DNA of 55,572 bases from IMG/VR virus record IMGVR_UViG_3300026320_000006, positions 1 through 55,572 of that record; one strand, 5' to 3'. The stretch's first letter is position 1; the number at the start of each line of letters is the position of its first letter. Below the pieces are notes generated by a model. It was given only the letters and a program-made list of their open reading frames with translations. It was not told the origin of the DNA and did no database searches. This document shows positions 1,871 through 55,572 of the stretch, piece after piece. The position numbers and the translations under genes are program-made. Source of the DNA: a virus. Taxonomy: Duplodnaviria > Caudoviricetes.

Positions 1871-2617
1871 ATGGCAACCATTTTGAATGAAGCCAGCAAT
1901 TTGGCTGGTAACGGATTTGGAGAACGTACACGTACTGTGCGACTCGCTGAAAACTACCACAACGGCGTGTATGAACTCCTGGCACGTGTTTCTGACAGCC
2001 AGGTCGTTTTTAGCAAGCTTGACGACACTGAAGACTCCTACGATGAAGACGGCAATCCCATCCGGCATCCCAGCAAGAATTATTCGCTGAACGCAACTGA
2101 AGCTGATGCTTTCGTGGAAGCCTGGACAGCATATAAAGCCGATCGGGCAGCTGCGCTAGAAGCTGAAGAGCAGCGCAAAGCGGGGGTACTTGCGAAAGCC
2201 CAAGAGCTAGCTACTGAGCTCGGTCTGGAGATCACCGCAGACGAAAATGACATGTACGAGGACAATCAGCGCTTCACGCTCAGGCATACCACACACTATA
2301 TCAATCGTTCCTACGCCTACAGCATCGATGGCCTACTTGAAATCGTCAAAGAATTCCAGACAGCACTGGAAGATGAACACAAAGCGATTGAAGAAGCGCG
2401 CGCTACTGCCAACAAGATCACGGAACTATGCGGCGATGTTGTTCACATCACCTCGAAAAAGCCTGCTGACGGGCGCTACAGCCTGAAGATTGACGGACAA
2501 TTCAGCCATTGGAATATCGAGCAGGTACACGCTAGCGTCATCCTGGATCGCTTGCAAACCATCCTGCGCGACCTGGAGCGCGACGCAAAAGCGCAAACAG
2601 AAAGCGCTGTTTCATAA
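1871..2617 (+). CDS. Hypothetical early protein (acidic, helical)
   Basis: 248 aa ORF with GAAAGGA RBS directly behind a consensus promoter. Confidence 0.75.
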   Translation: MATILNEASNLAGNGFGERTRTVRLAENYHNGVYELLARVSDSQVVFSKLDDTEDSYDEDGNPIRHPSKNYSLNATEADAFVEAWTAYKADRAAALEAEEQRKAGVLAKAQELATELGLEITADENDMYEDNQRFTLRHTTHYINRSYAYSIDGLLEIVKEFQTALEDEHKAIEEARATANKITELCGDVVHITSKKPADGRYSLKIDGQFSHWNIEQVHASVILDRLQTILRDLERDAKAQTESAVS

Positions 2618-2846
2618 CATACTTTTTCTGATTGGAGGTGATGCCGTCATAGGTTCGACGTTGGGCACGCGAACAATAGAATAGGGAAGATATTCTTACA
2701 CGATAGACCAAAGCTCTTAGGCGAAATTTCTGCAATTGACACATTTCACGTCGGAATGCAGTCAAGAAAAGTGGAAATGTTCAATCACCTGGGAGCTTTT
2801 GCGCGTGTATGGTAGAATAGAAAGAAAGTTCAGAGTAGGGGAATAT

Positions 2847-3110
2847 ATGAAATTTAATTTTCAAGACACGCAAATACTCATGCATTCCAAATTTCTTACT
2901 GAGGATGGACGCCCGGTTTCTGTTCAAAGTGCCAGTAAAGCTGATTTCAAAGCATTTCTTCAACCGGCAATGGAAGATGTAAAAGAAGAGCAATTAGAAC
3001 AGTCAAAACGTGCTGAGACTCTTTTTCAAGCCATTCAGCAAGGAACCATACGTTATACGCATATCCGAACGCTATCAGGATTTGAAGAAGATACACTACA
3101 TAGAATCTAA
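2847..3110 (+). CDS. Hypothetical protein
   Basis: ATG with AGGGG RBS, upstream TGGTAGAAT; abuts terS. Confidence 0.55.
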   Translation: MKFNFQDTQILMHSKFLTEDGRPVSVQSASKADFKAFLQPAMEDVKEEQLEQSKRAETLFQAIQQGTIRYTHIRTLSGFEEDTLHRI

Positions 3111-3119
3111 AGGAAAAGT

Positions 3120-3602
3120 ATGTCAACCGTTGACTGGCAATCCATCAGAGCGGAATGGGAACTCGGTATTTCAGAACGCACCCTTGCGACAAAATATAGT
3201 GTACCAAAAACAACGCTTCACGATCGCGCTAAAGCTGAAAAATGGATACGCATGTTACCGACCGGTTTCCGACCGGACCCCCCGACCACTAAAGCAGTGG
3301 TCGACACTCCAATGAGTACCGTCAATACAGCCAGGCTTTTACATGAAGTCATTCACAGGCTGGCACAAAACGACATTATCGACGAAAGAATGGTAAAACT
3401 GCTGGCTGATGCATTGTCCCAGGTCCACAAAATTCAAATGACCGCAGTGATTGATCCAGAAACATCACCGTATGACCTGCGTGATCTGCTCAGCTATTGT
3501 ACCGAGGAAGAACGCGCTATTATCAAACCCATCTTTACCGCAGCTACAGCACGCAAACAAGAAGAGCAAGAGAAACTAAAACCAATGAGGAAAATAGGCT
3601 AA
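3120..3602 (+). CDS. terS: Terminase small subunit-like protein
   Basis: N-terminal DWQSIRAEWELGISERTLATKYSVPKTTLHDRAKAEKW fits the TerS HTH pattern (DW..I..E...G.S.R.LA.KY......RA..E.W). Confidence 0.7.
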   Translation: MSTVDWQSIRAEWELGISERTLATKYSVPKTTLHDRAKAEKWIRMLPTGFRPDPPTTKAVVDTPMSTVNTARLLHEVIHRLAQNDIIDERMVKLLADALSQVHKIQMTAVIDPETSPYDLRDLLSYCTEEERAIIKPIFTAATARKQEEQEKLKPMRKIG

Positions 3603-5184: not shown

Positions 5185-6111
5185 ATGCAGGTCAGCGAGG
5201 CTATTGAAGATTTCCGGTTTTCCATTTTGCACCTGGCGCCTGGTACTCAGCAGTGGTATTTGTGGCGCTTAGAAGCGTTTGCTTCCTGGTGTTCCTCGCA
5301 AGGGATAGAGCTTGAACAGCTTAAGCGAAAAATGCTGGCAACGTATCTGGACCAACTTCGGTCAACACCCAGCAAGACAACCGGGAAACCGCTCTCATCC
5401 CATACAGTTCACGGCCATGCCAGGGCAATTAGGGCATTCCTGAACTTCTGTGCTAAGGATGATGATCTGCAGCGCGAATTGTCCTCGTTGCCAACAAACA
5501 AAGTACCGATGCCTCGCCTGGAAAAGAAGCTGATCAAAACATTGACTCAGGAACAAATCCAGGCCATGTTTGCAGCATGTGACAAAGAATATCTTCCTCA
5601 CCTGGTTGTGCGCGATCGCGCTATTTTGTCTTTACTCCTGGACACCGGTATTCGTGCTAGTGAACTCTGCAACCTCACGCTTGATTGTGTCTTTCTGAAG
5701 CATGACTCTCATATTCGGGTCCATGGGAAAGGCGACAAATGGCGCGAAGTCAGCCTGGGTATAGAATCGAGCAAGGCATTGCACCGCTATATTTCCCGGT
5801 ATCGTCCTGCGTCCACAGAAGAAAAGCACGTGTTCATCGGTCGGTTTCACGAACCGATGCGGTTCGATGGATTAAAGCAGCTGTTGTACCGGCTCAGGGA
5901 TTTTGCCGGATTAGATCACAATGTGCGCGTCAATGCGCATGTGTGGCGGCATACATTCGCGATGAACTACTTGAGACAGGGCGGTGATATTTACGCTTTA
6001 AGCAGGTTGATGGGGCATGAAAGTATTCATGTAACTCAGATGTATGCACAAGCACTCAAATCTGAGCAGGCACGCAAGATTAGCGGGAGTGTCTTAGATC
6101 GGATGTTTTGA
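5185..6111 (+). CDS. int: Tyrosine recombinase / integrase (XerC/D-like, no obvious arm-binding domain)
   Basis: DTGIRASEL, HGKG, HVWRH, LMGH, TQMY catalytic motifs. Confidence 0.95.
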   Translation: MQVSEAIEDFRFSILHLAPGTQQWYLWRLEAFASWCSSQGIELEQLKRKMLATYLDQLRSTPSKTTGKPLSSHTVHGHARAIRAFLNFCAKDDDLQRELSSLPTNKVPMPRLEKKLIKTLTQEQIQAMFAACDKEYLPHLVVRDRAILSLLLDTGIRASELCNLTLDCVFLKHDSHIRVHGKGDKWREVSLGIESSKALHRYISRYRPASTEEKHVFIGRFHEPMRFDGLKQLLYRLRDFAGLDHNVRVNAHVWRHTFAMNYLRQGGDIYALSRLMGHESIHVTQMYAQALKSEQARKISGSVLDRMF

Positions 6112-9514: not shown

Positions 9515-12334
9515 TTGCTCACCCTGATAAAGCAATCACAGCAACCGCCAGAACTGACCTATGATGAATTACTTGAAGCAGAAGAATACAGACGCAGCTT
9601 CAAACGATTTGCTATTGCTGCATGGCATGTGATTGAACCGTCTAAACCCTTGCTGTGGAATTGGCACTTAGACGCGATCGTAGAACATCTCCAGGCGTTA
9701 TATTTCCGCGAAATCACGCGGCTCCTCGTAAACATTCAACCAGGCACAGCAAAATCCACCTTCTTCAGCATCATGTTCCCTGCCTGGTGTTTCACCAATG
9801 ACGCCGCTATGCGCTGGTTGTGTGCGTCTCATTCGCTTGATCTTGCAATCAGAGACAATAAAAATTGCCGTGATCTGATACAAAGTGAATGGTATCAGCA
9901 ACGCTATGGTCATTTGTTCTCGTTGAAAGGTGATCAGAACGTCAAGAGCTATTTTGAGACGAGTCAGCGCGGCTATCGTATGGCTGTAGCTGTGCGAGGC
10001 TCAGGAACCGGGAAAAGATGTGATGCCAGCATTATCGATGATCCAAATAATGCGATGTCTGGATTGGCTGATCAACAGGCAACGATTGATTGGTTCGAAA
10101 AAACCTGGATACCGCGCCATAACGATCAGGAAAAAAGTCCAATGGCGGTTGTTGGCCAGCGTTTAGGGCAAAATGATCTCTCACAACATATTTTAGAGCT
10201 TGGTGGTTGGGAACATTTGAATTTGCCAACAGAGTTTGAGCCTGGAAGACGATGTTATACAAGCGTGATAGGAGATGTGTGGAAAGGCTATGATCCGCGA
10301 GAAGAAGAAGGCGAATTGCTGTGGGAGGACAAATTTTCGCGTGAAAGTGTGGAAAAGACAAAAGCTAATATGGGAACGCTGGAATATCACGCGCAATATC
10401 AGCAATCTCCGGTTCCTCCAGGCGGTTACGTCTTCGAAAAACAGTATGAGCGTCTTTTCAGCATCGATCAGGAAGCCAATGTGTACTTGCTGGAGACTCC
10501 AGACGGCATCAAACCAGTGGTCATAAGCGGATGTAAGATCTATATTACCTCGGATGTAGCTGCTAAGGCCAAAGAAAAACATGATTTCACCGTCTTTTGT
10601 GTATGGGCAATCACGCCGCGCAAAGAAATCTTGTTGCTCTATGTCATCAGGGCTCATTTGACGATCACAAAACAGCCGGACGAGGGGTACAAGACCTATC
10701 AGGCCTATTTAGATGATCGTTTTCAGTCATTTTGGTTTGAAGATGTGGCCTATCAGGGCGCATTTGGTCAGTATTTGATGGAAAAAGGTGTGCCATGCGA
10801 GCCTTTTTATCCAAAGGGTGACAAAGTGGTTCGAGCGGGGGGCGCGGCCATTCAGATGAAGCTTGGCAATGTCTATTTTCTGAAAAATGCGAGTTGGCTG
10901 GAGACGTGGCGCAAGGAAATCTATCTGTTTCCGCAAGACGCGCATGATGATCAGTGTATTTTACCTGATGCGCTATTGCCTTATATCCCCCATGATGATA
11001 TAATAAGCTCATACGTTAGTCGTCATGTAGGAGATAAAGCAATGCTTATAGGTGAAGCTCAGAACCTTAAAGAAGGCGATCTGGTTGTTACCCATACGGG
11101 AAAATGGCAGAAGATTGTACATGTGATTTCACGCTCATATCAGGGTGAGATGGTTGTTATTAAACCGCAAGGTGGCTTTGAATTATCACTTACTCCTGAA
11201 CATCCTGTATTTTGTGTGAAGCGTACCGGAAAAGGGCAATTCTGGAAACCTCGTGCTGTAGGTGAGCCGCAATGGATACCAGCCAGTGAAGTTGTTCCTG
11301 GTGACTCGGTGCTTGAAGCGATAGATCAAACAATAACGCCTGTTGAACAGCTTGATCTATCAGAATGGCTTTTAGCTGAACGTAGTGAAGCTCAAGGTAA
11401 ACGAAGTCATGCAGGGTTATATCTTTCTCGTTTGATTGTTGAGCCTGATGTTATTCGTTTTAACAATCCTCGTTCTCATCCAATTAAGCGATTTGTGCAG
11501 GTAGACGGTGATTTGTGTCGTTTGATGGGCTATTATGTAGCTGAGGGCTCACGAGGCAAGCATAATGTTCAGTGGTCATTTAATGTTAATGAGACTGAAT
11601 ATCATGTTGATGTAACGAATCTGCTTCAATCTAAATTTGGTATCGCTCCATCAATTCAGAAAGCACATAATTCTCTTACTCTCGCTGTTTCTTCATGGGT
11701 GTTACACGATTTCTTTGCTCAATTTGGACGTGGCGCAAAAAATAAGATCGTTCCTCAATGGATTATGCATCTTCCACATAATTTACAGGTAGAATTTCTT
11801 AAAGGCGCATGGCGCGGAGATGGATGTGTTGCTACTGATGGAAGCGGATTAATTTATTGTTCTTCGTCTCGTGAATTAGTTGTTGCTTTAAGAATGATAC
11901 TTTATCGGCTTGGCATTGTTGCAAGCATGGGTATATCACGTCCTAACGGTACTGTTGGGCATAGTATTCGTGGGAGAGCAATAAAATTATCATCTCCGCT
12001 TTACATGTTGAAAGCCGGTGGCGAATATGCGCCTGTTCTTGCTTCTTTGCTGGATATGCCGATTAACCGTGAACACATTCAAAATGGACGTGTTGGCGAT
12101 CGGATTGTAGATGGGTATGTCCATCGGAGAGTACGCAAGGTTGAATTTGTTGATTATGAGGGGCCTGTTTATAACTTTGAAGTTGAGGAAGATCATTCGT
12201 ATCAAACGGAGTCTTTCATCGTCCACAATTGCGACAATCTCAGTATGATTGTGATTATTGTCAAGATGGCCAAAGATGTAGAGCCAATGGACCAGGAAAC
12301 AGCGAACGCTATTAGAAATTATGCAGGATATTGA
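9515..12334 (+). CDS. terL: Terminase large subunit with intein
   Basis: NIQPGTAKS Walker A, IIDDP Walker B, AQYQQSP, RNaseH-like TSDVA...HDDQ|CD. Confidence 0.95.
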   Translation: MLTLIKQSQQPPELTYDELLEAEEYRRSFKRFAIAAWHVIEPSKPLLWNWHLDAIVEHLQALYFREITRLLVNIQPGTAKSTFFSIMFPAWCFTNDAAMRWLCASHSLDLAIRDNKNCRDLIQSEWYQQRYGHLFSLKGDQNVKSYFETSQRGYRMAVAVRGSGTGKRCDASIIDDPNNAMSGLADQQATIDWFEKTWIPRHNDQEKSPMAVVGQRLGQNDLSQHILELGGWEHLNLPTEFEPGRRCYTSVIGDVWKGYDPREEEGELLWEDKFSRESVEKTKANMGTLEYHAQYQQSPVPPGGYVFEKQYERLFSIDQEANVYLLETPDGIKPVVISGCKIYITSDVAAKAKEKHDFTVFCVWAITPRKEILLLYVIRAHLTITKQPDEGYKTYQAYLDDRFQSFWFEDVAYQGAFGQYLMEKGVPCEPFYPKGDKVVRAGGAAIQMKLGNVYFLKNASWLETWRKEIYLFPQDAHDDQCILPDALLPYIPHDDIISSYVSRHVGDKAMLIGEAQNLKEGDLVVTHTGKWQKIVHVISRSYQGEMVVIKPQGGFELSLTPEHPVFCVKRTGKGQFWKPRAVGEPQWIPASEVVPGDSVLEAIDQTITPVEQLDLSEWLLAERSEAQGKRSHAGLYLSRLIVEPDVIRFNNPRSHPIKRFVQVDGDLCRLMGYYVAEGSRGKHNVQWSFNVNETEYHVDVTNLLQSKFGIAPSIQKAHNSLTLAVSSWVLHDFFAQFGRGAKNKIVPQWIMHLPHNLQVEFLKGAWRGDGCVATDGSGLIYCSSSRELVVALRMILYRLGIVASMGISRPNGTVGHSIRGRAIKLSSPLYMLKAGGEYAPVLASLLDMPINREHIQNGRVGDRIVDGYVHRRVRKVEFVDYEGPVYNFEVEEDHSYQTESFIVHNCDNLSMIVIIVKMAKDVEPMDQETANAIRNYAGY
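10955..12229 (+). mobile_element. Intein (425 aa) with LAGLIDADG homing endonuclease
   Basis: Starts CILPD; block B LTPEHP; LMGYYVAEG and FLKGAWRGDG; ends VYNFEVEEDHSY...IVHN|C. Confidence 0.95.
10976..11044 (+). promoter_or_regulatory. Internal promoter, RBS and in-frame ATG inside the intein
   Basis: TTGCCT-N17-TATAAT with extended TG, AGGAG at 11029, ATG at 11042. Confidence 0.7.
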
Positions 12335-32397: not shown

Positions 32398-34115
32398 TGA
32401 CTGTAACACTTGCTCAACAGCGCAAACTTGCGTTTATCAATCTCGCGGACTATTGCAAGATTGATGGCTCATCCGATGATAGCACAGGCTTTACCAACGC
32501 CTACACTCTTGCCAGTACGCTTGGCATGGGCATCTACATGCCAGGCGGAACACTCGTCAAGGGCAACGATACGCTGCTTCCCCTCGTCCCTATCGATTTG
32601 GGCGGTGGGACAATCAAGCTCAAGAACGGCGCGAATACTGATTTGTTCTCAGCGCAAATAGGCAGTATCAATCTCGCTGCTTCACGGGGTACTGGCATTG
32701 ATGGCACGCTGTATGGGTTTAGCATTAAAAATGGAACGCTCGACGGCAACAAAGCTAATCAGTCCAGTGGGCCTTCCTGGTGTCTCCGCTTCTACGGCTA
32801 TGGCTTCACCTTCGAAAATCTTGAGCTTGTCAACGGCTTCAGTGGCGATGCGCTGATTGACTGGAATGGGACGGGAATACACAACCATAACGGCGTTGAG
32901 GCAAAGATCAGGAACCTCCATTGTCACAATGCCAGCGGGATGGGGCTACAGATGGGTGGACCCCATGACAGCCAAATCACGAATTTTATCACTTCAGAAA
33001 ATGGAGGCATCAATCTCCATCTTTGCCCGAATGCGGTGGGGGTACAGATTGATAATTTCCACAGTTGGGGCAATTTTGGAACGGGATTGCCAGGGGTACT
33101 CATTGAAGGCGGGGATAACGAGTTCAACAATGCTGTATTTGAGAGTCCATCTGATACTGCTACATATTGTCTGGTGCTAGCAGCCAACAACAATCAGATC
33201 AATGGGAAATGCCTTTCAAGCGGGGCGTTCTCTGGCGTCAAATTAGGTCAGAATAGCGGAGAAACACCAGTTCCTGGTCAAATACTCCAGAGCGCAGGGG
33301 TAACGCTTTATAATCCATCCGATAATAGCGATATCAATATGCTATTTGAAAGCTGTACGGGTACGAATGGCGCAATTAACTTTGATCGGGTACATTTCAG
33401 CAAGATTAAAGCGATAGTGACGCAATCAAGCGGAAGCGCGTACACGGGCTTCCTGGATCCAACTAACCAGTTTGAACTCTTGCCACCAAATGGCCTGACG
33501 CCTGATGGAACTGTTGGTAAAGGAGGGCAAACTCGTATTGCTGCCGACTCGCAAAATGCCTTTACCGTAGGGGGCGCCAACCAATATCTCGACTATTTCA
33601 ACGTGGTGACACATACAAACCCACGTTTTGAAATGCCGCAAGGGGTATATCTCCAATTCTACAGTGATCAATATTCGACAGCAACCTCAGCGCTTCGCAT
33701 AGGGATAGGCGCTCCGTCCAATGGCGTCGGCAATAATGGCGACTACTACTTTAGAGGTGATACACCGGGAACAGCTTATCAGCAACTCTACATCAAAATA
33801 GCCGGAGCCTGGGTACCTTTTGTCGGCGCGCCTATTCAAAGCGCGACAACGCCGGACCCCGGAGCGGGTGGAACAATCACAACGTCAGGCGTCACCTTGG
33901 CGCGTGTGACTCCTGCGGCAAGTCGTACAGGCGTGATTTTGCAAGCAGGAACGATAGCCGGGCAAAAATGTACGGTCGTGAACAATTCAGCGTCGTTTAC
34001 GATTACATTTGCGGCGGCTGGCACGTCCAATGTTGCGCAGGGCGTGAGCCTCGTGATTGCTGCTCTCGGAAAATATGATTTCACCTGGGATAGTGTCGCA
34101 GCACGCTGGTATTAA
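32397..34115 (+). CDS. Tail spike / receptor-binding protein with right-handed beta-helix (pectate-lyase-like)
   Basis: DGSSDDSTGF...YMPGGT, LDGNKANQ, G/N-rich repeats, GAPSNGVGNNGDYY. Confidence 0.75.
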   Translation: MTVTLAQQRKLAFINLADYCKIDGSSDDSTGFTNAYTLASTLGMGIYMPGGTLVKGNDTLLPLVPIDLGGGTIKLKNGANTDLFSAQIGSINLAASRGTGIDGTLYGFSIKNGTLDGNKANQSSGPSWCLRFYGYGFTFENLELVNGFSGDALIDWNGTGIHNHNGVEAKIRNLHCHNASGMGLQMGGPHDSQITNFITSENGGINLHLCPNAVGVQIDNFHSWGNFGTGLPGVLIEGGDNEFNNAVFESPSDTATYCLVLAANNNQINGKCLSSGAFSGVKLGQNSGETPVPGQILQSAGVTLYNPSDNSDINMLFESCTGTNGAINFDRVHFSKIKAIVTQSSGSAYTGFLDPTNQFELLPPNGLTPDGTVGKGGQTRIAADSQNAFTVGGANQYLDYFNVVTHTNPRFEMPQGVYLQFYSDQYSTATSALRIGIGAPSNGVGNNGDYYFRGDTPGTAYQQLYIKIAGAWVPFVGAPIQSATTPDPGAGGTITTSGVTLARVTPAASRTGVILQAGTIAGQKCTVVNNSASFTITFAAAGTSNVAQGVSLVIAALGKYDFTWDSVAARWY

Positions 34116-34126
34116 GGAGGCTTTTC

Positions 34127-35101
34127 TTGTCAGTACTTCAAAATTTTCCAATGGTTTCACAGCTTACATCAGTAACAGGCGACAATAAACCATCAGAAAA
34201 TCGCCTGTATGATTGTGTAGCCGCTTCCATTGATGCGGCGTGTAGATACTTGCTTAATAAGTCGGAGGATAGCGTTTTCAATCCTGACAGCTTCAAAGAT
34301 CAAGCATATGGAGATACCTGGATTGGTGGAACAGCGGCAATCAAATACATTGCGTTCTGCAAATCGCTGGGAGTCAATTTGTATCCCGTGCAGGGGAGCC
34401 CTCAGAAGCTTGTCGCGTTAGCCCATGGCTATCTGGCACAAGAGAAACCAGTCATTTTCACCATGCCGGATAGCTATTCCAGCGATCCAAACATGACGCA
34501 TGTGTGTGTGTTCTACGCTGATGGACCTGGCTATCTGGTAGCAATGGACCCGTTCCCCCTGCCTGGTGTCAATAGTGGTCATCCTGATCGCAGAACAGAT
34601 GCTGAATGGATGAATGTACTGCTTTTTAACGAGGTGTGGATCACAGAAAGGATTGACGATATGCCGCCTCCAATCACCATAACAAACCCGGCTGTTGCAG
34701 TGTACTTTGTGCAAACAGGCCCAACGTCCTGGCATTGTGCTAAAACCGGCAAGGTCATTCAAGGTGCGATCTTGAGCTATTATCAAACCTGTGGTGCTAC
34801 TGCTCTGCATGGTTTGTTGGATCTCGGGTTACCTGTTAGCAATGAAATTCCGCTGGATGGAAAAGGCAATGTGAAACAGTTCTACGAACGCGGGGTTGTG
34901 TTCTATGATCCGGGCAAAATCTATGATAGCCCGCCTGGATCTGGACCTGTCTATCACGCTCATTTGTATTCAGGAGCTGGACAAGATCCAGAGATCGCTG
35001 ATCTACAAAAACAGCTAGCTATATTACAGAAGATGCCGCAAGCGCCACAAATGGACGCGGACCTGCAACAAATCTATGCGATCGCTGAAAAGTACAAATA
35101 A
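34127..35101 (+). CDS. Endolysin: papain-fold (C39-like) peptidase plus LGFP-like binding repeat
   Basis: SQL...DCVAAS...H...MDP; LGLPVSNE...QFYERG. Confidence 0.65.
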   Translation: MSVLQNFPMVSQLTSVTGDNKPSENRLYDCVAASIDAACRYLLNKSEDSVFNPDSFKDQAYGDTWIGGTAAIKYIAFCKSLGVNLYPVQGSPQKLVALAHGYLAQEKPVIFTMPDSYSSDPNMTHVCVFYADGPGYLVAMDPFPLPGVNSGHPDRRTDAEWMNVLLFNEVWITERIDDMPPPITITNPAVAVYFVQTGPTSWHCAKTGKVIQGAILSYYQTCGATALHGLLDLGLPVSNEIPLDGKGNVKQFYERGVVFYDPGKIYDSPPGSGPVYHAHLYSGAGQDPEIADLQKQLAILQKMPQAPQMDADLQQIYAIAEKYK

Positions 35102-35147
35102 AAAAGCCTCCCTACGTGAGAGAGGCGGGAGAAATGAGAGGAATGGG

Positions 35148-35510
35148 TTACTTGTCACCGTACAGGCGCACGGCTTCACGGAGCAAAAATTCGCGATACG
35201 CTTGGGCGCCTATCTCATCCTTATCGGCATTGGCAGCCTGTCCACGCCAATTGTGGTCATTCTTCCAGGCGTACTTTGCGGCGCGACCCATTACCCAGGT
35301 AGGCGCATCGGGTGTTTCTACGATAATCGTACGCGGTCTGCCCATAGGCGCACCGGCGAGCCATGCCAGGAATGCATCGGATGTGTCATCGACAAGCCAG
35401 GTCGAACCTGACTGTCGAGCGGCTTCGCCAAATGCGCCGCGCTGTGCTGCCTTCAGCAACGTGGAGCGGTCTAGATGCCGCTCCGAACTGATTTCCGCAA
35501 TCGTCTTCAT
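35148..35510 (-). CDS. HTH DNA-binding protein (Aca-like position)
   Basis: KTIAEISSERHLDRSTLLKAAQRG...ARQSGSTWLV; GRPR; AGGAG RBS before ATG 35510. Confidence 0.7.
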   Translation of the reverse strand: MKTIAEISSERHLDRSTLLKAAQRGAFGEAARQSGSTWLVDDTSDAFLAWLAGAPMGRPRTIIVETPDAPTWVMGRAAKYAWKNDHNWRGQAANADKDEIGAQAYREFLLREAVRLYGDK

Positions 35511-35511
35511 G

Positions 35512-35682
35512 CTACTTGCTCTCCTGCTTCGCTTGCAATTGGCGTTTCCACTCAGCAATACGAGACTCTTCACCGCGCTGAAATGCTTTGATTGCTTGAC
35601 TGTAGGAAGTGAGGCCAGCCGCCTCAAACTTGCGTGCCAGGGCCACTTGCGCATTGGTAACGCCTTGTCCAAACTTTGCCAT
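35512..35682 (-). CDS. 56-aa hypothetical protein
   Basis: GAAAGGA RBS; MAKFGQGVTNAQVALARKFEAAG...; not in ORF track. Confidence 0.65.
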   Translation of the reverse strand: MAKFGQGVTNAQVALARKFEAAGLTSYSQAIKAFQRGEESRIAEWKRQLQAKQESK

Positions 35683-35698
35683 GCCTTTCAGTCCTTTC

Positions 35699-35923
35699 TT
35701 AGCTTATCCAGGAAGAAACTTCTTCCAATACGACATCCCTTACGATGGTGCCTTTCTCGTCGTCGGCAACGCTGGCTTCTAATTGCCGCTTCGCCTCAAT
35801 CGGGCTATCGGCAACGATGGTCATCTCTGCCCTGCCGCCCTCGCGAGGAGGATACTCATTGCCCTGTAAATCAGTCCATGCTCGCGCTACCGGGATGTAG
35901 GAAAACTTGTAAACTTGTGCCAT
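35699..35923 (-). CDS. 74-aa acidic hypothetical protein
   Basis: First gene behind a strong promoter. Confidence 0.65.
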   Translation of the reverse strand: MAQVYKFSYIPVARAWTDLQGNEYPPREGGRAEMTIVADSPIEAKRQLEASVADDEKGTIVRDVVLEEVSSWIS

Positions 35924-35970
35924 TATCTTTCTCGCTTTCTTTACTTGCTGTACCAACTTGGTACACTTCT

Positions 35971-35999
35971 ATTATATTCCGTAATTACGGAATAGTCAA
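35971..35999 (-). promoter_or_regulatory. Consensus promoter with a perfect 20-bp palindromic operator
   Basis: TTGACT-N17-TATAAT; TATTCCGTAATTACGGAATA at 35975-35994. Confidence 0.88.
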
Positions 36000-36052
36000 G
36001 TGTTTTTCATGCCAATTTCCGCATCGTCGGAAAACTCGTTTAGGAGGATTTT

Positions 36053-36610
36053 ATGAACATTTTCAGTAAAGCTGCTCAGAACCTACCACTTACCCCTGCT
36101 CAGCGCGCATTTTTGAAACTCTTAAAAGGCTGGTTTTATACCGCTTTGGGAGTTGGCATCATAGCAGGGGCGCAGTACATCATGGGGACGTCTCTCATTG
36201 ATTGGCAAAAACTTGGGTATATCGTAGGAACCGGTGTCTTGCTCTCTATCTTGCACGCGCTCGACAAGTACTGGACTAGCCAGGGTGACACACCATTAGC
36301 ACTGGCAACAGAAGCTATTGAGCAGAAAATACCGGCACAACCCCCTGCCCAGCCACAAAAAGCGCCACAACCGATCTTATTTGCTGGTGTCAATCCAGTT
36401 CCAAATGCGACAAACACGGTACCTAATGCTGGATTTGGTACGCTTACCAGTGGACCACAACTCTCATTTCCGCCTGCACAACCGTTGCAATTTTCAACGG
36501 TGCGCAACCCACAGCAAATTCCAGCAATCAATCTTGCCGAGGTGCCCCCTGCTCAGTCTCAGGATACACAGCGTCACTTTGGAGATTCGCAAATCATGCC
36601 AACCGTATGA
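36053..36610 (+). CDS. Holin-like two-TM protein with Pro/Gln-rich tail
   Basis: Two TM segments; AGGAGG RBS; downstream of endolysin. Confidence 0.6.
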   Translation: MNIFSKAAQNLPLTPAQRAFLKLLKGWFYTALGVGIIAGAQYIMGTSLIDWQKLGYIVGTGVLLSILHALDKYWTSQGDTPLALATEAIEQKIPAQPPAQPQKAPQPILFAGVNPVPNATNTVPNAGFGTLTSGPQLSFPPAQPLQFSTVRNPQQIPAINLAEVPPAQSQDTQRHFGDSQIMPTV

Positions 36611-36673
36611 CAGGTCATCGGTAGCGCAAGAAAGGCTTCACCAGAGAGGTGTAGGACCGCCTGAACATAAAAA

Positions 36674-36708
36674 GACATCCCGATTTATGTCTAAAAAATC
36701 GGGATGTC
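36674..36708. terminator. Hairpin between convergent late and early arms
   Basis: GACATCCCGATTT / AAATCGGGATGTC. Confidence 0.7.
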
Positions 36709-36734
36709 AGATTTGGCTCTCAGGCACTCTCCTG

Positions 36735-36926
36735 TCATTTTGGCTTGATTTCGTTGAAAAGCGCCTGTTTCATGGCCTCATATGCTCTATTTTCCTGTCG
36801 TTTTTCTCGCTCCTTCTCCAGCCAGATGTAAAACAGCATGGCCAACCCAATGCCACCAACAAGTACACACAGTATGCCAATGACGGCAAAGACCACCAGC
36901 CAGAAAAAGAGAAAGCCGTTAATCAT
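36735..36926 (-). CDS. Small membrane protein
   Basis: Long hydrophobic N-terminus; AGGAG RBS. Confidence 0.6.
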   Translation of the reverse strand: MINGFLFFWLVVFAVIGILCVLVGGIGLAMLFYIWLEKEREKRQENRAYEAMKQALFNEIKPK

Positions 36927-37294
36927 GAATGTGTCTCCTTGTCTTTCTCTTTTGCACGCCGCGCGTGAGTATCGTTCTCTGCCTCTTGCATCAGCCCAAG
37001 TACGATACCAGCATACGGTTCATCCAGGTTAATCACTACGTAATTATTACCGCGCTTCCCCTGGCTGCGCCTATACTCATGCACGAGATCGAGCAAATAA
37101 TCCAATTGCCGGCACTGCTGATCGTCCAGTGCCGCGTGGATATCTTCAATCTTTACCACAAGGAAACGATTTTCTAGCTGCATGATTTTATCGTATTCAC
37201 TCATCGTTTTTGTATCTCCGTTTCCATCGTGATTGTTGCAAATATCCGGGTCAGACGTTGTGTGTATGCCGGTTTGAGCTTTACTGGTTTGCAA
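36923..37294 (-). CDS. Hypothetical phage protein (true start probably near 37204)
   Basis: RFLVVKIED...YVVINLDEPYA. Confidence 0.6.
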   Translation of the reverse strand: MQTSKAQTGIHTTSDPDICNNHDGNGDTKTMSEYDKIMQLENRFLVVKIEDIHAALDDQQCRQLDYLLDLVHEYRRSQGKRGNNYVVINLDEPYAGIVLGLMQEAENDTHARRAKEKDKETHS

Positions 37295-37528
37295 AAAGTA
37301 AGATCATAGATAACCAAATCTCTATCGATACTTTGTCTCACGTGCTTCTCGCGCTTAACTGACGTGATTGGATTTATCCAACGTCTTCTCATCCTGCTTG
37401 AATATCCCCCGTTGCGATCCAATAAATCAATAAAACAAGCACACCTGACAAGAACAGGAGAAGCAACCAGACACAGAGCGTATCAAGGATCTGTTGCCAG
37501 GTGAGCGGAACATGTGGTTGTTCTTCTT

Positions 37529-52368: not shown

Positions 52369-52580
52369 TGTGTTGCTCCCTCCGGATTCAATCGTGTTAC
52401 TGTACCGCTAAACTGGACTTTTGCAATTGCTCTGTTTCCAACTTGTTTGCGAGTGATAAAGTAACGAGGTGGATTTTCAAAATTTGGAACAATGTAATGC
52501 GTTTGATAAATTGAGCTTGCTCGTTGCTTTGCAATTTTAATAGCTTCGTCTACGGTATCAAAGTAACGCGCTTTGTTCAT
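52365..52580 (-). CDS. Hypothetical protein
   Basis: Coupled ORF, GGAGG RBS. Confidence 0.6.
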   Translation of the reverse strand: MNKARYFDTVDEAIKIAKQRASSIYQTHYIVPNFENPPRYFITRKQVGNRAIAKVQFSGTVTRLNPEGATQ

Positions 52581-54784
52581 GCCATCGCCTCCATTTCATC
52601 GAATAAGGTTGCTTGTGTCTTTTGTTGCACCATGCGCTCGAGGTTCTTACGAGCAACTTCGAAGTAAGATTGTTTGAGTTCTACCCCAACGAACTTACGC
52701 CCATGCCGTAGTGCTTCGTAACCCTCGCTACCAATGCCTGCAAAAGGAGAGAAGATTGTTTCTCCTGGATTGCTCCAGAGCTTGATACACCGTTCAATCG
52801 TACCGAGCTGCAAAGGGCACACATGCCGTTCATCGTCAGCATCACGCGCCTCAACCACGTTCAATGTGTCGGACTCCTTGATGCCATACCAGACGGGATG
52901 GGCCCACTCGATCCATTCATCGTTGGTCATGTCAGGATGAACAGGAACGGTGTTCTCTCCGGGCCTGCGAAATACCAGGATATAATCAGCGAGTCCGGGG
53001 CGCATCCACGAGGCGTCTTTGCGGAGCTGCGCAAACAGTAACCCTTTCGCGTGTGTGCGGATCGCCTGCGCCTGTGGGTTCTTATCGATGGTTACTTCCC
53101 CGTGATACACCCAGCCACGATCTACAAACGCCTGTATCGTTTCACCGCGAAAGTCTTTCAAACCAATAAAACCATCGTTGATCAAGGTCGCCGCTATTTG
53201 CTGGACATGCACACAGCAATTCCGGCCCGGTTTTGTCACCCGGAGCAGATGATCGATGATATATGAAAAGTGCCGATAGAATTCATCGCGTGTACGGCTA
53301 TTGCCCAAATCGCGCTCTGTTGGGCTATACACATACAGTTGCTGGAACGGCGGCGAAAAGATAGAAAGATCAACTGACTGATCAGGTATTTCTGCCATGC
53401 GTTCGCAACTATCACCCAACATCAGCGTGTAGTGGTCTGTTGTGATTGTTTGTGTCATATACTCCTGCTCCTGTTGTGACTTTTCAAGTTCCTCACGTTC
53501 AAATTTCTGAACATGCTCAATTAACTGCTTGCTCATCTGTTGCGCCTCTTGTTCTTTTCGCAGGACATTTTGATAGACTTCTTGTTCGATTTCTGAGAGG
53601 ATAATGCTCACCTGAACCGGCTGTGTTTGCCCAAAACGATAACAGCGTCGAATACACTGATAATAATCTTCGAAGCTGTCCGAGAGACCGATAAAGGCCA
53701 TGTTGTGACAGTGTTGAAAATTCATACCATACCCGGCGATTTTTGGCTTTGTCACCAAAACACGATACTTCCCTGTTTGAAATGCTTCGATTGCAGCAAT
53801 TTTTTGGTCTGGACTGTCAGACCCAATAATCTCAATGCTGTCTGAAATACTCCCTGCAAGGGAAGCGCTTTCGTCATTGCGGCCACACCAAAGGATCCAC
53901 TGTTCATCGTTTGAGGCGACCAGTTCAATAGCTTTCTGGACGCGTTCTGCTACCGTTCCCTTGCGCGCTTTTGAGCGATCTGTGATGCCTTTCAAGCCAG
54001 TAGCAAACAACTGATCTGCAGGTGTATAGCCTGTTTTGACAATCACCGGCTCAACCGACAATACAGGCAGAATATAGCCAGTATCGTCATAACCGATATC
54101 AGACGGCTTTTTGATGCTCATCGACCAGGATGCAAGCCAGCGATAAAATGCCTCGGTTGCATGGCCTTTCAATCGCCATCCGTTGCCAGCGCCACTATCC
54201 GAGTCATGTGTGAAAAAAGTTGCCAGCATATTTGGGCGCGTCATGACCCCTAAAAATTCTGCATGATTGGCGATCTCTGTGATATCGTTTGGAGCAGGTG
54301 TTGCCGTACAACACAACTTGAATGGAGTAGTACCAAACATCTCCATCAGTTTTGCTTTGATTTTTCCATCAAGCGATTTAAGTATTGATGATTCATCCAG
54401 GACGACAGTTCCAAAGTCAGATGGATCAAAATGATCAATCATCTCGTAGTTTGTGATATTGATACCGTCAATCAGATCAGAACCAGACCGCGTATAATGT
54501 GTCTGGATGCCAATTTTTTTCGCCTCATTCACCGTTTGGCGCGCAACTGACAAGGGCGCGATAATCAAACTTCGAACGTTTGAGAGGCGCGCAAACTCCA
54601 ACTGACAAAAAGTTTTTCCCAGCCCTGTATCAGCAAAAATAGCGGCGCGGCCTTTTTGAAGCGCCCACTGCACGATGACTTTTTGCCAATCGAACAACAT
54701 CGGATGTATCGCTGACAGGTCAACAGCACGGCCTGATGTTTGGGATTGCAACCGTTTGGATTGGAGGAATGTGTGATAGTCCAT
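52577..54784 (-). CDS. SNF2-like helicase fused to a beta-class N4-C/N6-A DNA methyltransferase
   Basis: DTGLGKT, LDESS, TATP, QCIRRCYRFGQ; then GDSCE, FSPPF, HVCPLQ, PFAGIGS. Confidence 0.9.
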   Translation of the reverse strand: MDYHTFLQSKRLQSQTSGRAVDLSAIHPMLFDWQKVIVQWALQKGRAAIFADTGLGKTFCQLEFARLSNVRSLIIAPLSVARQTVNEAKKIGIQTHYTRSGSDLIDGINITNYEMIDHFDPSDFGTVVLDESSILKSLDGKIKAKLMEMFGTTPFKLCCTATPAPNDITEIANHAEFLGVMTRPNMLATFFTHDSDSGAGNGWRLKGHATEAFYRWLASWSMSIKKPSDIGYDDTGYILPVLSVEPVIVKTGYTPADQLFATGLKGITDRSKARKGTVAERVQKAIELVASNDEQWILWCGRNDESASLAGSISDSIEIIGSDSPDQKIAAIEAFQTGKYRVLVTKPKIAGYGMNFQHCHNMAFIGLSDSFEDYYQCIRRCYRFGQTQPVQVSIILSEIEQEVYQNVLRKEQEAQQMSKQLIEHVQKFEREELEKSQQEQEYMTQTITTDHYTLMLGDSCERMAEIPDQSVDLSIFSPPFQQLYVYSPTERDLGNSRTRDEFYRHFSYIIDHLLRVTKPGRNCCVHVQQIAATLINDGFIGLKDFRGETIQAFVDRGWVYHGEVTIDKNPQAQAIRTHAKGLLFAQLRKDASWMRPGLADYILVFRRPGENTVPVHPDMTNDEWIEWAHPVWYGIKESDTLNVVEARDADDERHVCPLQLGTIERCIKLWSNPGETIFSPFAGIGSEGYEALRHGRKFVGVELKQSYFEVARKNLERMVQQKTQATLFDEMEAMA

Positions 54785-54785
54785 A

Positions 54786-55572
54786 TTATGCCCCCACACG
54801 TTTTTCGCGCCATTCGGCAAATTTGCCGTAGACACTATCCAACAAATCACTCGCTTCACCTTTCGTGACTGTCACTGGATCATATTTGAGGTTGAATCTG
54901 GCCTGATACTTTGCCAGCTTTTCTAGTTGTACCTCGGTTGCCGAGTCGTTGCGCCAGGGTAACGTTCTATCTACCAGTTTATAGCCATTTGGTTGACTGA
55001 GGAGAATACGCGCTTTCTTTTCAGCTTGAGCTTGAGCCCAATCGAGTGGCAAGTAGTCAGACCAGACCTGTGCTTGAGAACCAGGAAACAATTTAGCCAA
55101 AACACGATAATTGCCTGATCCGCTCTCATCTGGCGTAAGTGCAATACGATCTCCACTATCAAGCTCCAACACAAATTTACCATCGGGTTTCGCCTGCCAG
55201 GTCAGTTTGGCCAGCAGGTTCAGTTCAACGTCTTTGTTGCGCTGCTCTTTTAGCTTGCGCACAACCGAGCTCTCTGTTTTGTTGCCGATCTCTTCTTTTT
55301 CACGCTCAAGCGCTTCAAGTAAACTTTCTTCTGGATTAAGCTTTTTCCCAAGTACTTTACTCAGGCTCATTGGCTCAAGCCGGTGCTTGAAACAGTTATC
55401 AGTGATGTCCAGGATGATACAGTCTTTTTTGCCGGGCGCTAATCTTAGCCCGCGACCAATGGCCTGGATAAAAAGCGCTCTGGACTGTGTTGGGCGTGCC
55501 ATGATAATACAATCGCACAAAGGTTCGTCCCAACCCTCTGAAAGCACATTGACGGTCGTCAGGACGCGGATA
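54786..55572 (-). CDS. SF2 helicase, C-terminal part (same gene as 1-1450)
   Basis: LSEGWDEP, QAIGRGLR; overlaps the terminal repeat. Confidence 0.9.
   Translation of the reverse strand, partial: IRVLTTVNVLSEGWDEPLCDCIIMARPTQSRALFIQAIGRGLRLAPGKKDCIILDITDNCFKHRLEPMSLSKVLGKKLNPEESLLEALEREKEEIGNKTESSVVRKLKEQRNKDVELNLLAKLTWQAKPDGKFVLELDSGDRIALTPDESGSGNYRVLAKLFPGSQAQVWSDYLPLDWAQAQAEKKARILLSQPNGYKLVDRTLPWRNDSATEVQLEKLAKYQARFNLKYDPVTVTKGEASDLLDSVYGKFAEWREKRVGA
54995..55572. repeat. Terminal direct repeat, right copy
   Basis: Matches 1-578. Confidence 0.95.

Follow-up and report, generated by a model that had tools for sequence, protein, structure and literature searches.

What is a small operon doing in the late gene region of a phage when it runs against the direction of its neighbours, carries its own promoter and terminator and ends with the gene of a predicted DNA-binding protein? 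This question is raised by IMG/VR virus record IMGVR_UViG_3300026320_000006 (Duplodnaviria; Caudoviricetes), which we analysed over its whole length of 55,572 bp (hereafter the window). Between two plus-strand late genes, the minus strand holds three small open reading frames (ORFs), transcribed in the order orfA, orfB and orfC (Table 1). A preliminary description, made from the sequence alone, saw here an autoregulated operon of the kind that encodes anti-CRISPR (Acr) proteins together with a repressor of the Aca type, and proposed new anti-defence proteins and a new repressor. We conclude that the locus is very probably an accessory cassette controlled by its own repressor, as judged from the layout and conservation of its sequence. 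Our fuller reading, which we hold with somewhat better than even confidence, is an autonomous and mobile cassette (a moron), placed antisense to the late operon, which represses itself and whose cargo, orfA and orfB, encodes effectors directed at the host. The architecture of the locus suggests that this cargo might be anti-defence of some kind, which we rate as possible but short of an even chance; that it is specifically anti-CRISPR is improbable.

A palindrome fills the spacer of the cassette promoter

A consensus scan returned three promoter-like sites within positions 34000-37500, and the best of them precedes orfA. It agrees with the consensus at 11 of 12 positions and has a 17-nt spacer. 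Because the hexamers follow the consensus and the spacer has the optimal length of 17 bp, the promoter is expected to be intrinsically strong. The spacer is filled by a perfect 20-bp palindrome, here called O1, and a related dyad, O2, is located upstream of the -35 hexamer. Both the promoter with its palindromic spacer and the upstream dyad had been noticed in the preliminary description, and we find them at the positions given there or no more than a few bases away. We found the palindromes by reading and pattern search; an automated inverted-repeat search of 34900-36200 reported none. Searching the whole 55,572 bp with the pattern TTCCGNNNNNNCGGAA and allowing one mismatch recovered two matches, which are O1 and O2, 40 bp apart. 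The pair alone is not rare in the window, as 33 of 100 shuffles reached two matches, and the significance of the dyads therefore comes from their position and their conservation in relatives, not from the match count. Since at this stringency the dyad occurs in the window only in the cassette promoter, orfC appears to be a dedicated autoregulator. We also considered orfC as a general regulator of the phage and rejected this, because the dyad is found nowhere else in the genome with up to one mismatch. O1 is predicted to be the binding site of an orfC dimer.

The predicted transcript begins with a stem-loop. Of the 12 leaders that were folded, 10 have a hairpin at the equivalent place, starting 5-10 nt past the -10 hexamer (the window, L002, L006, L007, L012, L019, L020, L022, L026 and L027). 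The arms of the hairpin covary (GTACC/GGTAC, GTACT/AGTAC, ATACC/GGTAT), and the stem of L006 is unrelated. The loop varies from 3 to 7 nt, which fits an RNA element better than a protein site of fixed spacing. The hairpin may be a 5′ stabiliser of the RNA or an RNA motif bound by the regulator. Structured RNA motifs bound by Aca proteins were recently reported in the leaders of acr-aca operons (PMC13551039). At the other end of the cassette, the terminal hairpin and U-tract of the preliminary description were recovered as an 8-bp stem followed by a T run, and the same hairpin was found 3′ of orfC in L002.

Regulator and dyad are linked and vary together

For comparison we collected 26 loci with an orfC relative from viral (soil) and metagenome contigs, many of them duplicates, and one cassette from a genome of the Ktedonobacteria class (L037). 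From these, 14 distinct promoters were aligned, leaving out L011 (nearly identical to L003), L017 (nearly identical to L015) and exact duplicates. In 24 of the 26 loci, the 800 bp that precede the orfC homologue contain an exact TCCG-N6-CGGA. Of the remaining two, L010 lacks upstream sequence altogether, and L019 carries a symmetric variant (TTCCT..AGGAA) in which both arms are changed. In all 14 distinct promoters the dyad is located in a 17-bp spacer and is accompanied by a TATAAT-like -10 hexamer. The symmetry of the dyad is conserved as such: 94.5% of the cells in the alignment are complementary to their partner, whereas sliding the partner by 1-3 columns leaves 28-58%, and two-sided changes are seen at three of the eight pair positions. 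An exact O2 was found in seven promoters (the window, L002, L003, L022, L026, L027 and also L011, which is close to L003), either 40-41 or 50 bp upstream of O1, i.e. about four or five helical turns. What stays constant in the aligned sequences is thus the promoter scaffold together with the TTCCG-N6-CGGAA dyad of its spacer and, on the protein side, the Xis/MerR-type domain at the N terminus of orfC.

A diverged cassette, L037, was the best match when 169 genomes from the class of Thermosporothrix were searched in six frames; four of these genomes had a match at an expectation value (E) of 1e-5 or lower, and a sample of 151 genomes from the class of a Blastocatellia metagenome-assembled genome (MAG) gave one marginal match (E 8.4e-4). 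An initial scan of representative genomes with the orfC alignment had yielded 52 pattern matches, none of which was confirmed. L037 encodes a 178-aa protein, which shares 40% identity with orfC over its first 60 residues (E 6e-10 and E 7e-12) and is preceded by two acidic ORFs of 127 and 72 aa. Its promoter consists of AAAACAC, TTGACT, a 17-nt spacer and TATGAT, which is the scaffold of the window. The palindrome in the spacer keeps the CAATTG centre, and its outer half-sites are TCACA/TGTGA. That a diverged recognition helix goes with a diverged dyad at the equivalent position makes the strongest computational case for the protein reading the dyad.

In one genome (G311) we noticed four identical open frames of 703 aa that carry a relative of the orfC N domain (L041, L043, L044 and L045). 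On each of two large contigs they lie about 4.8 kb inward from either end, an arrangement that looks like terminal inverted repeats of linear replicons.

A predicted winged-helix regulator

The preliminary description had called orfC a helix-turn-helix (HTH) gene. A DNA-binding fold is indeed predicted, and it is more specifically a winged helix of the Xis/MerR type, joined to a C-terminal domain of three helices. The AlphaFold model, built with 12 sequences, has a mean predicted local distance difference test score (pLDDT) of 84. Its N domain (residues 1-54) folds in the order beta-helix-helix-beta-beta-helix. It is followed by a basic linker, which is poorly ordered and contains a conserved GRPR motif, and then by a three-helix bundle (residues 76-117). 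The solved folds nearest to the N domain, as identified by VIA, are Tn916 Xis (Z 5.8, root-mean-square deviation 2.6 over 51 residues) and BldC (Z 5.8), followed by Xis of mycobacteriophage Pukovnik (Z 5.7) and the DNA-binding domains of MerR-family proteins (Z 4-5). For the C domain no informative structural match was found. A Foldseek search of the model against PDB gave no match at E ≤0.001, and the orfC profile found nothing below E 0.1 among PDB sequences. Prediction of an orfC homodimer gave no support and allows no verdict.

The family is small. Full-length orfC has 14 clusters among 5.8 billion, and its N-terminal 62 residues have 85 representative relatives (E ≤0.001) among 1.84 billion, most of which are 58-190 aa with only a few long ones. 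Neither cultured phages nor plasmids gave a tblastn match to orfC. In summary, orfC appears to belong to a new regulator family, for which no relation to the compared Aca proteins was detected in sequence and structure searches, and we predict that it acts as a winged-helix autorepressor of the Xis/MerR type.

Cargo genes and their turnover

The two small genes and the terminal regulator gene of the preliminary description encode 74, 56 and 120 aa, respectively, although the 74-aa gene had been given coordinates there that were shifted by one base relative to its frame. Substitutions relative to homologues, counted at the first, second and third codon position, are 13/7/35 for orfC, 3/4/15 for orfB and 9/5/37 for orfA. 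This excess at third positions shows that all three are real coding genes and not chance frames, and the substitution pattern indicates that they are under purifying selection.

Between promoter and regulator, the related loci carry unrelated small ORFs, which divide them into 12 cassette types (Table 2). The regulator is downstream of the small genes in 11 of the 12, and only L005 has no upstream gene. The start codon of the L005 regulator comes 6 nt past the -10 hexamer, and its mRNA may therefore be leaderless. The 14 distinct cargo proteins range from 53 to 121 aa and are all free of transmembrane (TM)-like segments; eight of them have an isoelectric point (pI) of 5.1 or lower. Three of the 12 types encode a nuclease after the regulator, identified by Pfam as HNH_3 in L005/L018 (E 2e-12) and as GIY-YIG in L019, L020/21 and L022-25 (E 9e-6). 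The regulators found directly 5′ of these nuclease genes are short, about 62-67 aa (L005 921-1760, L019 440-1300, L021 3726-4560, L022 1874-2700).

Table 2. Cassette types, their cargo and regulator, and the genes next to them
Locus	Cargo	Regulator and following gene	Junction or neighbour
Window	orfA + orfB	long	324-aa lysin-like protein / 185-aa membrane protein
L002	orfB + 85-aa protein (pI 4.1)	long	tail-fibre genes / 319-aa homologue of the window lysin-like protein
L003 group	orfB + 121-aa protein (pI 4.1)	long, then 86-aa ORF	L003: terminase large subunit / unnamed 169-aa ORF
L006	53-aa basic protein	long	upstream of Rv2525c-like glycoside hydrolase
L007	64-aa protein (pI 4.3)	long	
L010/L012	67-aa protein	long	
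L013-17	64-aa CxxC...CxxC protein	short (67 aa)	GT2 glycosyltransferase
L019	79-aa protein	short, then GIY-YIG gene	
L020-25	65-aa protein (pI 4.1)	short, then GIY-YIG gene	L021, L022: upstream of Amidase_2 lysins
L005/L018	none	short, apparently leaderless, then HNH gene	
L026, L027	74-aa beta-rich protein	short; in L026 then 87-aa acidic ORF	L026: Amidase_2 lysin / 131-aa membrane protein

The two families of the window differ in their spread. The orfA family has only four clusters, and that of orfB has 13. The two genes had been described as encoding unknown proteins, and indeed neither matches a known family, but orfB is no one-off: it recurs in five cassette types, where three different partners are found downstream of it (the window, L002, L003, L035 and L036). 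In L035 and L036 it is the first gene, the spacer palindromes are others, and the downstream partners are 116 and 130 aa long. A ribbon-helix-helix (RHH) start of the L035 partner was considered and dropped, as neither Pfam nor NCBIfam supported it. A copy of orfA that is 85% identical was found in L028, where orfC is not present; it is preceded by a 61-aa Zn-ribbon protein, which is 51% identical to the cargo of L013-17, and an unrelated 116-aa protein is encoded upstream. The association search proposed in the preliminary description thus led to cargo genes that circulate among cassettes having different regulators, as the shared homologues demonstrate.

L028 is also peculiar in its regulatory DNA. 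At positions 2230-3230, both the promoter and the palindrome in its spacer differ from those of the window; two copies of this promoter, inverted relative to each other, flank the 116-aa ORF, for which no family is known. The left-border motif AACGAGTTTTCC (see below) is also present in L028.

Structure and profile searches gave little on the function of the two proteins. The orfA model had no Foldseek match in PDB or BFVD at E ≤0.001. In a wide VIA search it was best matched by archaeal or eukaryotic ribosomal proteins (Z 6.7), which is within the stated noise of the tool, and so are the values for AcrIE2 (Z 3.8), T7 Gp2 (Z 3.9) and p56 (Z 3.8). The orfB profile found nothing below E 0.1 among PDB sequences, and scans with two other cargo proteins returned their own contigs or no match. 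Protein Atlas provided leads only, with a best score of 0.78 for orfB and of 0.84-0.86 for orfA, the latter from unnamed viral clusters.

Borders and insertion sites

Upstream of the -35 hexamer, a block with A[CT]GAGTTTT, then O2 and then AAAACAC follow each other in 12 of the 14 promoters, and this order is kept despite unrelated adjoining genes. Read on the opposite strand, this left border ends in the Shine-Dalgarno sequence of whichever late gene comes next. The block may be the border of the cassette, an UP element or a translation signal. The cassette also differs in composition from its surroundings, with a guanine-plus-cytosine (GC) content of 52.7% (orfC 57.6%), compared with 47.6% for the genome and 47.1% and 49.5% for the flanking genes. 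The varied junctions (Table 2), the conserved borders, the shared terminator and the deviating GC content together point to a bordered unit that moves between late-gene junctions. A relative without the cassette was not found in a scan of viral contigs with the 324-aa lysin-like protein. Contigs from four soil DNA runs contained only low-coverage pieces of the window phage, with no joint across the cassette.

In L002 we additionally noticed two antisense ORFs of 72 and 111 aa on the plus strand (2020-2500), which belong to no family and are located between the endolysin homologue and a two-TM protein. They may be a second accessory cassette at a lysin/holin junction.

The source phage and the genes flanking the cassette

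The record is estimated to be 98% complete and thus represents a complete or near-complete genome. Its genes include those of a tyrosine integrase, a tape-measure protein and a large tail protein, and the plus-strand late genes extend to about 36.6 kb. The combination of an integrase with late genes of the siphovirus type indicates a temperate siphovirus-like phage. Pieces of it are present in four soil metagenome studies. The relatives of its capsid protein come from the Blastocatellia MAG (49% identical) and from Thermosporothrix hazakensis of the Ktedonobacteria (44% identical), and its host is probably a member of the Chloroflexota. A similarity search with the DNA of 34000-37000 gave no match among cultured phages.

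The preliminary description placed the cassette between an endolysin and a holin gene. Its position between the genes of the 324-aa and the 185-aa protein stands, and both labels are plausible but weakly supported. The 324-aa protein is 32% identical to the 319-aa protein that adjoins the cassette in L002, and it found no PDB sequence below E 0.1. No promoter-like site belonging to the 185-aa gene was detected in the promoter scan, which makes it probable that late transcription has to cross the cassette.

Three other proteins of the window are worth mentioning. The 939-aa ORF is, judging from its position in the late operon, probably the terminase large subunit, although its matches are to LAGLIDADG_3 and to intein splicing and it matched no terminase family. 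At the ends of the genome, a fused helicase and methylase and a ResIII/helicase protein may serve self-protection or replication.

Table 1. Features of the cassette, its flanking genes and other genes of the window
Feature	Position	Strand	Remarks
ResIII/helicase protein	2-1450	minus	genome end
Tyrosine integrase	5185-6111		
939-aa ORF	9515-12334		LAGLIDADG_3 and intein-splicing matches
324-aa protein	34127-35101	plus	convergent with the cassette; weak endolysin or LGFP matches
Intrinsic terminator	35096-35126	minus	8-bp stem 35106-35126, T run 35096-35105; abuts the stop codon of the 324-aa gene
orfC	35148-35510	minus	120 aa; start codon 1 nt past the orfB stop codon
orfB	35512-35682	minus	56 aa, basic, pI 10.1; recurrent cargo gene
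orfA	35699-35923	minus	74 aa, pI 4.5, soluble; beta-beta-alpha-beta model, pLDDT 87.5
Leader stem-loop	35949-35965	minus	at the predicted transcript 5′ end; RNA fold -7.6 kcal/mol, z -3.2
-10 hexamer TATAAT	35971-35976	minus	consensus scan
O1, perfect 20-bp palindrome	35975-35994	both	fills the 17-bp spacer; core TTCCG-N6-CGGAA at 35977-35992 (16 bp)
-35 hexamer TTGACT	35994-35999	minus	consensus scan; TTGAC[AT] in 13 of 14 aligned promoters, TTGTAT in L003
O2, dyad TTTCCG-N6-CGGAAA	36016-36033	both	inner dyad 36017-36032; 40 bp centre-to-centre from O1
Left border block with A[CT]GAGTTTT	36031-36052	minus	other strand carries the Shine-Dalgarno (~36042-36047) of the 185-aa gene
185-aa two-TM-like protein	36053-36610	plus	no family match
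Fused helicase + N6/N4 DNA methylase	52577-54859	minus	760 aa; genome end

Comparison with known systems

The layout of the cassette is close to that of acr-aca operons, a likeness that the preliminary description had already pointed out. Shared features are a strong near-consensus promoter of the host type, an inverted repeat inside the core promoter with a second, similar one upstream, a structured element in the 5′ leader, small unrelated genes first and the DNA-binding regulator (a winged helix in the model) last, all in one operon, and one regulator combined with many different upstream genes. A study of acr-aca promoters describes consensus -35 and -10 hexamers and an inverted repeat that invariably lies within the core promoter, in many cases accompanied by a similar second one, with the cognate Aca protein acting as the repressor (PMC9410906). 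The differences concern the proteins. The Aca folds described in the literature consulted are HTH or RHH, whereas orfC is predicted to combine an Xis/MerR-type winged helix with a three-helix C domain. In the family searches made, no validated Acr was recognised among the genes linked to the regulator, and some versions of the cassette carry homing-nuclease genes. In the literature we found neither operons of this kind described for Chloroflexota nor an Aca protein of the winged-helix, MerR or excisionase type, although supplementary tables and files could list such a family.

All features of a temperate-phage moron are present: an own promoter and terminator, a place between conserved late genes, a deviating composition and different places in relatives. 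Unlike in morons, the cassette combines three genes between conserved borders, one of them for a dedicated, predicted autorepressor, and its cargo is swapped inside a constant regulatory frame.

In the fold of its N domain, orfC resembles MerR regulators and small proteins of the Xis/BldC type. The position of the palindrome is likewise shared, as MerR-type promoters have a palindrome in the spacer between -35 and -10. However, the spacers of MerR-activated promoters are overlong (19-20 bp), and that of the cassette has the optimal 17 bp in 14 of 14 promoters; orfC also lacks the long coiled-coil dimerisation helix. With a spacer of optimal length, binding of orfC should repress and not activate.

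Finally, free-standing homing genes of the I-TevI type share the location between conserved phage genes and a DNA-binding module predicted to repress its own promoter, and three of the 12 cassette types do carry nucleases. In contrast to homing genes, the window cassette has no nuclease (orfA, orfB and orfC were checked), and elsewhere the regulator and the nuclease are separate ORFs.

Proposed mechanism and alternative explanations

Sequence and comparison establish the unit with its borders, its mobility, the turnover of its cargo and a strict linkage and co-variation of regulator and dyad; orfC binding, repression, the timing of expression and the anti-defence role we infer as follows. Host sigma-70 RNA polymerase would fire at the near-consensus promoter upon DNA entry and produce an orfA-orfB-orfC mRNA of about 0.87 kb, with the stem-loop at its 5′ end, which would end at the terminator just short of the endolysin-like gene. 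Dimers of orfC would then bind cooperatively to O1 and to the in-phase O2 40 bp upstream. By filling the spacer, orfC would exclude RNA polymerase and shut off the promoter, so that a short burst of expression would be followed by a low steady level. Repression would also limit the head-on conflict with late transcription crossing the cassette toward the gene of the 185-aa membrane protein. The products of orfA and orfB would be exchangeable soluble effectors directed at the host, most likely inhibiting a host defence.

Several observations weigh against this reading. The fold matches of the orfC N domain are modest (Z 5.8-4.0, all below 6), and the matches to HTH_59 or HTH_17, found in 12 of the 14 N domains, are all under the curated Pfam cut-off (best 14.7 bits for HTH_59 and 21.5 bits for HTH_17, with a cut-off of 27 for each); the fold scores are nevertheless consistent with one another and agree with these sub-threshold matches. 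Aca chains are absent from the four PDB sequences matched by the orfC profile at E ≤10, from the Foldseek matches listed and from the 50 VIA matches. The capsid relatives point weakly to Ktedonobacteria or Blastocatellia as the host, and this uncertainty counts here too, as does the lack of RNA runs among the sequencing runs listed as containing the stretch. No cargo protein matched a family above threshold in Pfam, PHROG, NCBIfam or PADLOC, and no resemblance to known Acr or anti-defence proteins appeared in those searches. The sole PADLOC match, of orfB to PDC-S05 (E 0.0048, 15 bits), was taken as noise. Moreover, orfB is kept across cassettes instead of being hypervariable, which is less typical of Acr genes, and the nucleases in three of the 12 types fit a selfish-element origin at least as well as anti-defence.

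These points make it necessary to weigh other functions for the same layout. The cargo could benefit the lysogen, by excluding superinfecting phages or by altering the physiology of the host, with no counter-defence involved and with low expression from the prophage. The integrase of a temperate phage, the independent transcription unit with deviating GC content between conserved late genes, and an autorepressor, which would hold expression at the constant low level suited to a prophage gene, all agree with such a lysogenic-conversion moron. Morons have been characterised as horizontally spread independent transcription units that often benefit the host (PMC3594210). Against a conversion moron, no PADLOC model was matched above noise (orfB to PDC-S05 being the only match at all). 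The exclusion proteins known are in many cases membrane proteins, yet a TM-like segment is missing from each of the 14 distinct cargo proteins. Such an extreme turnover of small, mostly acidic proteins is also seen more typically at loci that act in counter-defence. Overall we regard a conversion function as unlikely, though with a small real chance. Less probable still is a kinship with free-standing homing-endonuclease cassettes, be it as a remnant or as a relative of one, with the nuclease lost in the window and the small ORFs being passengers or factors of immunity to the nuclease, without a target in the host. Genes of free-standing homing endonucleases typically insert between essential, conserved genes, and the sites beside the gene of the terminase large subunit and between lysis genes would suit this, as would the conserved borders of the cassette. 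In three cassette types the short regulator is followed by an HNH_3 or GIY-YIG gene, and autorepression is known for I-TevI, a homing endonuclease whose own DNA-binding domain represses its expression. On the other hand, the window cassette and eight other types have no nuclease domain, the dyad belongs to the cassette's own promoter instead of marking a target site, and the C domain of the long regulators is conserved, not a nuclease and under purifying selection; the lengths of the 85 representative N-domain relatives, few of them long, speak in the same direction. The three types with nucleases keep the link to homing endonucleases alive, either as a rival explanation or as a means of mobility.

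Two further alternatives seem quite improbable to us. The cassette could time lysis or late genes, through antisense transcription or through orfC bound at O1 and O2 modulating the adjoining lysis gene. Six of about 10 distinct contexts adjoin a lysin or a small membrane protein, about 10 bp separate O2 from the Shine-Dalgarno sequence that serves the 185-aa gene, and the conserved left border contains that Shine-Dalgarno context. However, cassettes are also found beside genes of the terminase large subunit and of a glycosyltransferase, the terminator halts antisense RNA ahead of the endolysin-like gene, and variable cargo is unnecessary for such a role. We consider it hardly credible that the cassette is a toxin-antitoxin or abortive-infection pair in which the HTH protein is the antitoxin and represses its own operon. 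A small operon with an autorepressing DNA-binding protein is the general logic of type II toxin-antitoxin systems, and the cassette shares it. Nevertheless, the invariant neighbours with another function, named in the preliminary description as evidence against its proposal, were not found, since the neighbours of the regulator differ in the 12 cassette types and L005 has none upstream; no cargo protein matches a toxin or a PADLOC family, and acidic mini-proteins with the regulator in the last place are atypical of such systems. We retain the mobile, self-repressed cassette with host-directed cargo as the preferred reading.

Implications

Whatever the function of the cargo, the cassette extends the regulatory principle of acr-aca operons to a different DNA-binding fold, and it provides a case of a complete regulatory frame, bounded by conserved borders, that is transferred as one unit from one late-gene junction to another. 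The natural half-site variants TTCCG, TTCCT and TCACA around one CAATTG centre form a specificity series. If the cargo is counter-defence, the orfC N domain together with the spacer dyad would be an anchor for guilt-by-association searches in soil phages of poorly studied hosts, probably Ktedonobacteria. We know of no anti-defence proteins from phages of such Ktedonobacteria-type hosts, and more than 12 candidate cargo families are already listed.

A bolder possibility, to which we give a rather low chance, is a plug-in module made of a border that resupplies the ribosome-binding site, an operator-promoter, a leader hairpin, a cargo slot, an autorepressor of the Xis/MerR type and a terminator. 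Such a module would hop between late-gene junctions of Chloroflexota phages, sometimes by means of a co-resident homing nuclease, and would serve as a general carrier of anti-defence genes. If this is true, the regulator and its dyad would offer a handle on unexplored counter-defence proteins in soil phages.

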